From the IMG/VR virus record IMGVR_UViG_2703718843_000006: a stretch of 12,015 nt of DNA; one strand, 5' to 3'. The DNA is from a virus. Its lineage: Duplodnaviria; Heunggongvirae; Uroviricota; Caudoviricetes. Of this stretch, positions 3,632 through 3,828 are shown piece after piece (position 1 is the first letter of the stretch; the number at the start of each line of letters is the position of its first letter). The notes beneath the pieces are model-generated. The model saw nothing but the letters and a program-made list of their open reading frames with translations, did not search any database and was not told the origin of the DNA. The position numbers and the translations under genes were made by a program.

Positions 3632-3828
3632 GGTGGAACAGGTGGAACAGGTGTTACAGCCTTGTTTTGTAATGCATTTATAGGTAAAGCACAGGTGGAA
3701 CATCGCGGGTAACAAGGTGGAACAGCGGATCGGCTGGCGTTCCACCTGTTCCACCTCACTATTTCAGAAGGTGGAACAGTTTCAGCCCTTGTAAAACACG
3801 GTTGTTCCACCTGTTACACTTGTTACCC
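3632..3828. repeat. Iteron array, putative primase-bound replication origin (ori/crr-like)
   Basis: At least eight copies of GGTGGAACAG or its complement TGTTCCACC: tandem 9-bp units 3632-3659; 3694-3702; 3716-3725; inverted 3739-3746 and 3747-3755; 3770-3779; inverted 3803-3811. Flanked by inverted GGGTAACAAG (3707-3716) / CTTGTTACCC (3819-3828) and AT-rich spacers. Lies just downstream of the primase gene stop (3855). Core resembles the P4 type I iteron TGTTCACC (from memory). Confidence 0.7.

Follow-up and report, generated by a model that had tools for sequence, protein, structure and literature searches.

A probable iteron-type replication origin downstream of the primase-helicase gene in a P4-like satellite prophage of Escherichia coli

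SaPI Rep proteins are self-loading initiator-helicases with a winged helix at the C-terminus, which recognises 6–12 iterons that follow directly on the 3′ side of rep and surround an AT-rich region (PMC9371898). Experiments on EcCICFT073, a Gram-negative PICI, showed that replication requires the origin spacer (Fillol-Salom et al. 2018, PMC6092414). The layout with an iteron origin 3′ of a satellite Pri-Rep gene is already known from staphylococcal and E. coli islands. Here, we describe a repeat array in this position, located in a stretch of DNA of 12,015 nucleotides (the window), which most likely serves a P4-like satellite prophage as its origin of vegetative replication. By initiator homology and origin layout, the closest described system is the SaPI Rep-ori replicon, while EcCICFT073 is closest by element architecture. 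The literature that we searched contains no description of this origin or of these iterons, and a full-text search with the iteron strings returned unrelated primer sequences alone.

The window represents a P4-like satellite prophage of E. coli, ≈11 kb in length, integrated at tRNA-Arg(CCT) beside yfdC. All genes of the element are on the minus strand. The integrase gene (9477–10748) is followed in the gene order by an AlpA-like HTH gene and an Icd-like gene, and then by small ORFs, including a DUF5375 gene that is a homologue of P4 orf106. Next comes the gene for the primase-helicase (Pri-Rep), a protein of 890 amino acids encoded at 3855–6527, with its stop codon at 3855–3857. A gap of ≈400 bp that has no annotated gene and holds the array separates it from a Sid-type gene (2693–3454), whose product of 253 amino acids matches a Sid-type PHROG over its full length. 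The Delta/Ogr gene (2421–2693) and a variable hotspot gene (1–1992) complete the set. Pfam and PHROGs matches support the integrase, AlpA-like, primase, Sid/Psu and Delta genes, in agreement with the RefSeq annotation; neither search gave a separate psu or epsilon gene in the element. The element is thus a mosaic, with a PICI gene order in the left arm, P4-type late genes and an initiator core of staphylococcal type. The satellite lineage is carried by 328 of 5426 complete E. coli genomes (≈6%), and 322 of these 328 hold the common variant, in which the GGTGGAACA type of repeat is kept with a few single-base variants. A segment of 601 bp around the array (3400–4000) is 100% identical to E. coli strain AH21.

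Several further features were seen around the late genes. Two TGT-N12-ACA dyads lie on the minus strand at 3489–3506 and 3527–3544, 38 bp apart, with 35 bp from the end of the second to the Sid-type ATG (3454). Both are conserved in the sister lineage described below, and Psid of P4 has the same dyad geometry (9493–9510 and 9531–9548 in locus L002, with the sid ATG at 9583). We take TGT-N12-ACA to be the Ogr/Delta site of P2 and P4, and the dyad pair is probably a Delta/Ogr-activated late promoter. A scan of 3400–3900 found no sigma-70 promoter and no intrinsic terminator; a hairpin with a T-run is present after the delta stop codon (2376–2405). Between delta and the hotspot gene, the position of cos in P4, the sequence GTGCGCAGCCCCGCCCGCC (≈2195–2217) is similar to the cohesive end of P4 in reverse complement, GTGCTTTCCCCGCCTCGCC, and is adjoined by about six short repeats of the CATGC type (2240–2350). 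A tRNA was the only RNA found with Rfam. The hotspot gene encodes a protein of 663 amino acids with an HATPase_c_3 match and a weak HSDR_N_2 match, for which PADLOC gave just a weak match to a type II restriction enzyme (E = 2e-8). Other genes, e.g., DUF4062, fill the hotspot in E. coli relatives, and the hotspot gene is probably an uncharacterised defence gene. Just past it, two E. coli genomes have a gene annotated as “phage portal protein” (L081, 2555–3580; L082, 3245–4300), which could be the end part of the element or the remnant of a P2-like neighbour.

The array spans 3632–3828 and consists of 12 sites of 9 bp within 197 bp. Read along the primase-helicase gene, it begins 27 bp past the stop codon with an outer triplet on the minus strand, made up of the degenerate iterons GGGTAACAA (3820–3828) and GTGTAACAG (3811–3819) and a core iteron GGTGGAACA (3803–3811). 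A single plus-strand GGTGGAACA copy follows at 3770–3778, and then two minus-strand core sites, GGTGGAACA at 3747–3755 and a copy with one mismatch, GGTGGAACG, at 3738–3746. Three plus-strand sites come next, namely GGTGGAACA at 3716–3724, the degenerate GGGTAACAA at 3707–3715 and GGTGGAACA at 3694–3702. Beyond an AT-rich spacer, the other outer triplet, also on the plus strand, comprises the degenerate GGTGTTACA (3650–3658) and GGTGGAACA copies at 3641–3649 and 3632–3640. The order of sites can accordingly be written >>> < >> <<< [AT-rich] <<<, with the four degenerate copies in register with the core copies. No gene is annotated over the array in RefSeq.

An earlier note on this DNA had counted at least eight repeat copies in both orientations, and this count holds: seven exact GGTGGAACA copies and one with a single mismatch are present in 3632–3811, five on the plus strand and three on the minus strand. 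The rest of the 12-kb window has just two scattered one-mismatch matches. Shuffled versions of the window gave a mean of 2.4 matches with up to one mismatch and a maximum of six, and none of 200 reached ten. In L001, an 18.6-kb genomic locus comprising the complete element with its flanking DNA, the exact 9-mer occurs seven times, all inside the cluster, against an expected 0.14; again, none of 200 shuffles reached seven. The repeats are real and strongly non-random. The longer inverted repeat said to bracket them also exists, with arms of 32 nt at 3637–3668 and 3793–3824 that are 81% complementary, but its arms are formed by the outer iteron triplets, which face one another.

The AT-rich segments that had been proposed alongside the repeats are likewise genuine, though modest. 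The AT content is 68% in the spacer that separates the final two groups of iterons (3660–3693) and 88% in the short stretch after the stop codon, ahead of the first iteron (3829–3845), compared to 53% for the window as a whole. In stability, the two segments coincide with the two lowest-ranking 30-mers of the intergenic region (9th and 3rd percentile in the window), the lowest of which contains 3829–3845. The spacer at 3660–3693, a candidate unwinding element, differs in sequence between relatives but is conserved in position and AT-richness. The AT-richness is modest and off-centre. The three sites that flank the spacer on each side are all in one orientation, and the iteron sets that oppose each other are the outer triplets.

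The protein encoded upstream of the array is a P4-type primase fused to a helicase that, by sequence profiles and a structural model, is of the SaPI Rep/Cch type. Pfam matches identify a Zn-ribbon (Zn_Ribbon_Prim, residues 32–68), a Toprim domain with an EGYATA motif (Toprim_3, residues 209–304) and a DUF927 AAA+ helicase (residues 330–612, E = 1.2e-90) with the Walker A sequence GESTDGKTT. BLASTP aligned residues 5–316, including EGYATA, with P4 alpha at 36% identity (E = 2e-46), but found no similarity to P4 alpha past residue 316. The family profile matched SaPIbov1 Rep (PDB 8tch, E = 1e-17) and SCCmec Cch (PDB 5dgk, E = 8.7e-16), both initiator-helicases of the self-loading, MCM-like kind. 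When the C-terminal domain (residues 643–890) was compared by profile with the P4 alpha C-terminus, no signal emerged (probability 0.06%). The C-terminal domain was also modelled with AlphaFold, using the window fragment aligned to database proteins. The model, with a mean pLDDT of 79.6 that rises to ≈90 over the last hundred residues, is a helical bundle with a winged helix at its end. Cch and SaPIbov1 Rep were the only Foldseek matches at E ≤ 0.001, over ≈200 columns, and structures of P4 alpha were absent among the top fold matches. The TM-scores were modest (≈0.4) and the rmsd large, owing to a flexible link between the two sub-domains of the model. The predicted winged-helix module, which we propose as the iteron reader, corresponds to codons 791–890 (3858–4157, minus strand), with helices at ≈834–841 and ≈846–856 and wing strands at ≈869–871 and ≈879–884.

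With an alignment of 16 homologues of the primase-helicase, 78 loci were retrieved, one genome per species. Each ≈10-kb locus was scanned, without regard to position, for the densest strand-collapsed 8-mer in any 250-bp window. In 61 of the 74 loci with a homologue, the peak cluster was centred 0–190 bp past the stop codon and had 4–12 copies; loci without an array peaked at 2–3 copies. Three Enterobacterales loci (L038, L046 and L063) have a GTGGGAACA array of 10–11 copies ≈1.25 kb past the stop codon, which suggests an insertion between the helicase gene and its origin.

The iteron itself varies by lineage. In Enterobacterales the 9-mers are GGTGGAACA, GGTGTAACA, GGGGTAACA, CTGGTAACA, GTGGTAACA, GAGGTAACA, GTGGATACA and TGTACTACA, while in Burkholderiales and others they are GGTGTAACG, GGGTTACA, GCGGTTAC, CGCTGTTAC, TGGGGACA or GCAGGGGCA. 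The layout >>> < >> <<(<) AT-rich <<< nevertheless recurs across Enterobacterales, with order and orientation largely kept, and Burkholderiales have a related layout in which the outer triplets face inward. Conservation of the iterons with the primase gene in related elements, on which the earlier note had made its proposal depend, was thus found in both position and order. The genes downstream of the array differ between loci (Sid-like, Delta, ERF recombinase, integrase-like or unknown), and homologues that consist of the helicase only, lacking the primase domain (L049 and L050), also have an array; therefore, the array is tied to the 3′ end of this gene. No domain is shared between the first 130 residues of L050 and the N-terminus of the window protein.

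A sister lineage with a protein 91% identical to that of the window (L006, L012, L040 and L045) could be aligned with the array site for site. The iteron columns are 85–88% identical, as opposed to 44–47%, with indels, for the spacers. Nearly all of the iteron differences are the same G→T change at one position in every core copy, converting GGTGGAACA to GGTGTAACA, whereas all four degenerate sites, including GGGTAACAA as the first site after the gene, are unchanged. This is the pattern of a protein-binding array after a specificity switch, and it indicates that the array is under selection.

Some genomes hold two or three elements of the family, and these mostly carry different iteron types (the sets compared were L003/L045, L041/L013, L012/L051, L061/L062 and L058/L064/L065). 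In Pantoea stewartii (L003/L045), for example, GGTGGAACA and GGTGTAACA accompany proteins that are 90% identical. In C. pedi, however, L058 and L065 have the same iteron type, and in some E. coli genomes two places match the same 601-bp query spanning the array. Because of these same-type cases and the small sample, we make no statistical claim about co-resident types.

Four pairs of near-identical proteins use different iterons, and they point to the end of the protein as the part that varies with the DNA. The clearest case is the Caballeronia pair L061 and L062, which reside in one chromosome. Their proteins are 91% identical overall and 86–100% identical along their length, but identity falls to 68% and 55% in the last two windows of 50 residues, and the DNA homology breaks ≈75 codons before the stop codon. 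L062 (Caballeronia sp. LZ035; regions 6361–6630 and 6900–7111) has its own CGCTGTTAC array and keeps, ≈570 bp beyond it, a decayed gene end of the L061 type with four GGGTTAC sites. The break in homology, together with this decayed end, therefore shows that the winged helix and the iterons were replaced together, and the decayed copy is a fossil origin left behind by the replacement of the cassette.

The wing motifs in Burkholderiales group by iteron type rather than by protein backbone: DGRSVRAER is paired with GGGTTAC, DGK[YF]QRVER with GGTGTAAC, and NGWAQRAER with GC[TG]GTTAC. In Enterobacterales, K at wing residue 866 goes with four iteron classes whose 10-nt consensus has G at position 3, and R with the remaining classes except class H, which also has G at position 3; the K/R switch is repeated within a Xenorhabdus pair with 96% alike proteins (L024/L025). 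In partial Mantel tests that controlled for the helicase, winged-helix distance was associated with iteron distance, although the effect was small (r = 0.13, p = 0.013), while the N-terminus (−0.07) and the helical part of the C-terminal domain (−0.06) had no association. Taken together, the comparisons indicate that iteron type tracks the C-terminal winged helix of the initiator.

The GGTGGAACA and GGTGTAACA lineages fit this pattern less simply. Most of the fixed differences between their 91%-identical proteins are in residues 1–200, and just three are in the winged helix (861, 870 and 878), none of which sorts consistently with iteron type across lineages. When the 13 fixed differences past residue 200 between the window lineage and its sister were checked in other lineages, no consistent residue was found, and no column in 326–890 separates all GGTGGAACA users, including L050, from all GGTGTAACA users. 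All discriminating columns are in residues 1–305, where L049 and L050 do not align. Furthermore, L050 has the same iteron as the window, yet is just 40–52% identical to it over residues 801–890. The N-terminus may thus contribute to the choice between the GGTGGAACA and GGTGTAACA bases.

A more general interpretation, which we offer tentatively and hold to be somewhat less than an even proposition, is that the winged-helix end and the array form an exchangeable specificity cassette, present in at least nine Enterobacterales classes with a fixed layout of 12 sites and diversified both by point switches and by wholesale replacement. Burkholderiales loci add further iteron types beyond these nine classes. 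In the point-switch mode, a change sweeps through all core iterons, as between GGTGGAACA and GGTGTAACA; L062 exemplifies the replacement mode. If such diversification is driven by co-resident satellites avoiding cross-activation or competition between initiators, the family would amount to a natural set of orthogonal replicons, and the code of the wing might be readable, for example from K versus R at residue 866.

The conserved position of the array, the order of its sites and their co-variation with the winged helix support the reading of the array as an iteron-type origin. We infer origin function, binding, melting, self-loading and the sufficiency of the fragment from sequence, the structural model and analogy with the systems above. 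In the mechanism we propose, hexamers of the protein would, after induction, dock via their C-terminal winged helices on the 9-bp iterons, with the outer triplets facing each other. The DNA would open at the AT-rich spacer (3660–3693) or at the gene-proximal edge of the array (3829–3845). The helicase would then load itself without a separate loader, the N-terminal Toprim primase would lay primers, and the host polymerase would take over.

The cluster directly downstream of alpha in P4 is crr, not ori (annotation of NC_001609), and the array described here has the same position. We therefore considered that the array might be an auxiliary cis site like crr, to which the initiator binds for enhancement or looping, while the true start of replication lies elsewhere in the element. 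This appears unlikely. There is no second cluster, and outside the array the 18.6-kb locus has no exact copy of the 9-mer. Moreover, the array is not only downstream of the primase gene, as crr is, but also ≈90 bp upstream of the Sid-type late promoter, where ori lies in P4, and the homologous SaPI system has an origin, not an enhancer, at this position (PMC9371898). The earlier note had offered “ori or crr”; the first term stands, while crr is disfavoured by the single cluster, which therefore argues for an origin of the SaPI/PICI type over the split ori and crr of P4. The array may also be a site at which a helper or a competing satellite interferes, as the note had proposed.

The location between two operons, close upstream of a Delta/Ogr-type promoter, would also suit operators that control the late operon, or that terminate or regulate the primase operon, bound by, e.g., the AlpA-like HTH protein or Delta. 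Plasmid iterons, too, often double as autoregulatory sites. However, the Delta/Ogr dyads are separate and lie outside the array, and the array stays with the helicase gene when the downstream genes differ, including in non-P4 contexts that have neither sid nor delta. Since the iteron type also tracks the C-terminal end of the helicase, and both were exchanged as one DNA cassette, we regard transcription-factor operators as quite improbable. That the repeats are functionless debris of slippage or duplication, or else a site for packaging or recombination, is the least probable of the explanations. Intergenic DNA in general accumulates repeats, and nothing else speaks for it, whereas the sites remain 85–88% identical to those of the sister lineage while the spacers drop to ≈45%, and the position is kept in 61 of 74 loci from two bacterial orders. 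An array without function is strongly disfavoured by these conservation data. The cos-like sequence is elsewhere (≈2195–2217), and the attachment site is at the tRNA gene.

An origin in the array would provide a probable location for the start of replication in a satellite lineage found in ≈6% of complete E. coli genomes. It would also correct the expectation derived from P4, in that this branch appears to replicate with a putatively self-loading helicase of the SaPI Rep/Cch type, fused to a P4-type primase, and to have one origin in the PICI position. The mosaic nature of the element bears on the exchange of modules between satellite families. Near-identical proteins with different iterons give a short list of residues and chimeras for the study of origin specificity, and the 200-bp array with its gene would form a compact, helper-independent replicon for work on satellite incompatibility. 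The points of note are the mosaic initiator and the natural series of specificity switches, including an exchange of the cassette that left a fossil origin.

The general arrangement is shared with iteron plasmids (pPS10, F, R6K and RK2, with RepA, π or TrfA), which likewise have a winged-helix initiator and repeats beside an AT-rich region, and in which specificity is set by the matching of iteron and protein, as proposed here. However, plasmid iterons are direct repeats of 17–22 bp in helical phase, while the sites in the window are 9 bp and occur in both orientations. The plasmid Rep proteins (WH1–WH2) are not helicases and need DnaA and DnaB/DnaC, whereas the initiator of the window is itself a helicase and primase.

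P4 shares with the element the DUF5375 gene upstream of alpha, Sid, Delta and the geometry of the late promoter, as well as the primase, which is homologous to the N-terminus of alpha with 36% identity over 330 residues. The iteron core is also nearly the same (GGTGAACA in P4, GGTGGAACA in the window). The earlier statement that the core is close to the P4 type I iteron is right as a statement about sequence: the P4 repeat is TGTTCACC, and the window unit, TGTTCCACC, is one base longer, with GGTGTAACA, CTGGTAACA and others in relatives. The kinship with P4 that this implied is borne out for primase residues 1–316, but not for the helicase and the DNA-binding end, which resemble SaPI Rep/Cch. 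The P4 helicase is a D5-like SF3 enzyme, that of the window is DUF927, and the C-terminal origin-binding domains are not homologous; therefore, homology of the binding domains does not explain the P4-like iteron core. The cis elements of P4, crr (4291–4590) and ori (9086–9809), are 4.5 kb apart, whereas the window has one cluster. The order and orientation of the iterons differ, as does the gene order of the elements, and the alpha and sid operons are divergent in P4, but run in the same direction in the window. Neither the complete P4 genome nor the P4 cos region gave a significant blastn match to the window or L001.

In EcCICFT073 (locus L084, E. coli CFT073), the order of int, AlpA-like HTH gene, Icd-like gene, small ORFs, primase-helicase gene and iteron origin is the same as in the window. 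In both elements, the morphogenesis genes follow the origin and all genes point in one direction. The origins of this type are spacers of ≈200–290 bp that directly follow the gene; that of EcCICFT073, 288 bp long, has ≈12 8–9-mers in both orientations, with TGTCTACC/GGTAGAYA sites. The components, however, are different: the EcCICFT073 initiator is of the D5_N/DUF5906/Pox_D5 type (SF3) and has no significant similarity to the window protein, its TGTCTACC iterons are unrelated to those of the window, and its downstream genes are homologues of capsid and decoration genes, where the window has Sid and Delta.

The SaPI Rep-ori system differs from the window in its host, the element described here residing in a Gram-negative bacterium, and in its hijacking genes, which in the window are of the P4 type (Sid, Delta). 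SaPI iterons are 5–6 bp, compared to 9–10 bp in the window, where the order of the 12 sites is fixed. In the textbook picture, the AT-rich region of the SaPI origin is central, whereas the stretch in the window is short (34 bp), 68% AT and off-centre. The primase fused to the window protein is of the P4 alpha type (Zn-ribbon and Toprim), although such a fusion has its counterpart in PriRep5 of SaPI5, in which a primase is fused to Rep. The similarities lie in the initiator and its DNA: SaPIbov1 Rep (8tch) and SCCmec Cch (5dgk) have a homologous AAA+ DUF927 helicase core and the same predicted C-terminal fold, ending in a winged helix, and in SaPIs, as here, the gene is followed directly by short iterons in both orientations, between which there is an AT-rich stretch.
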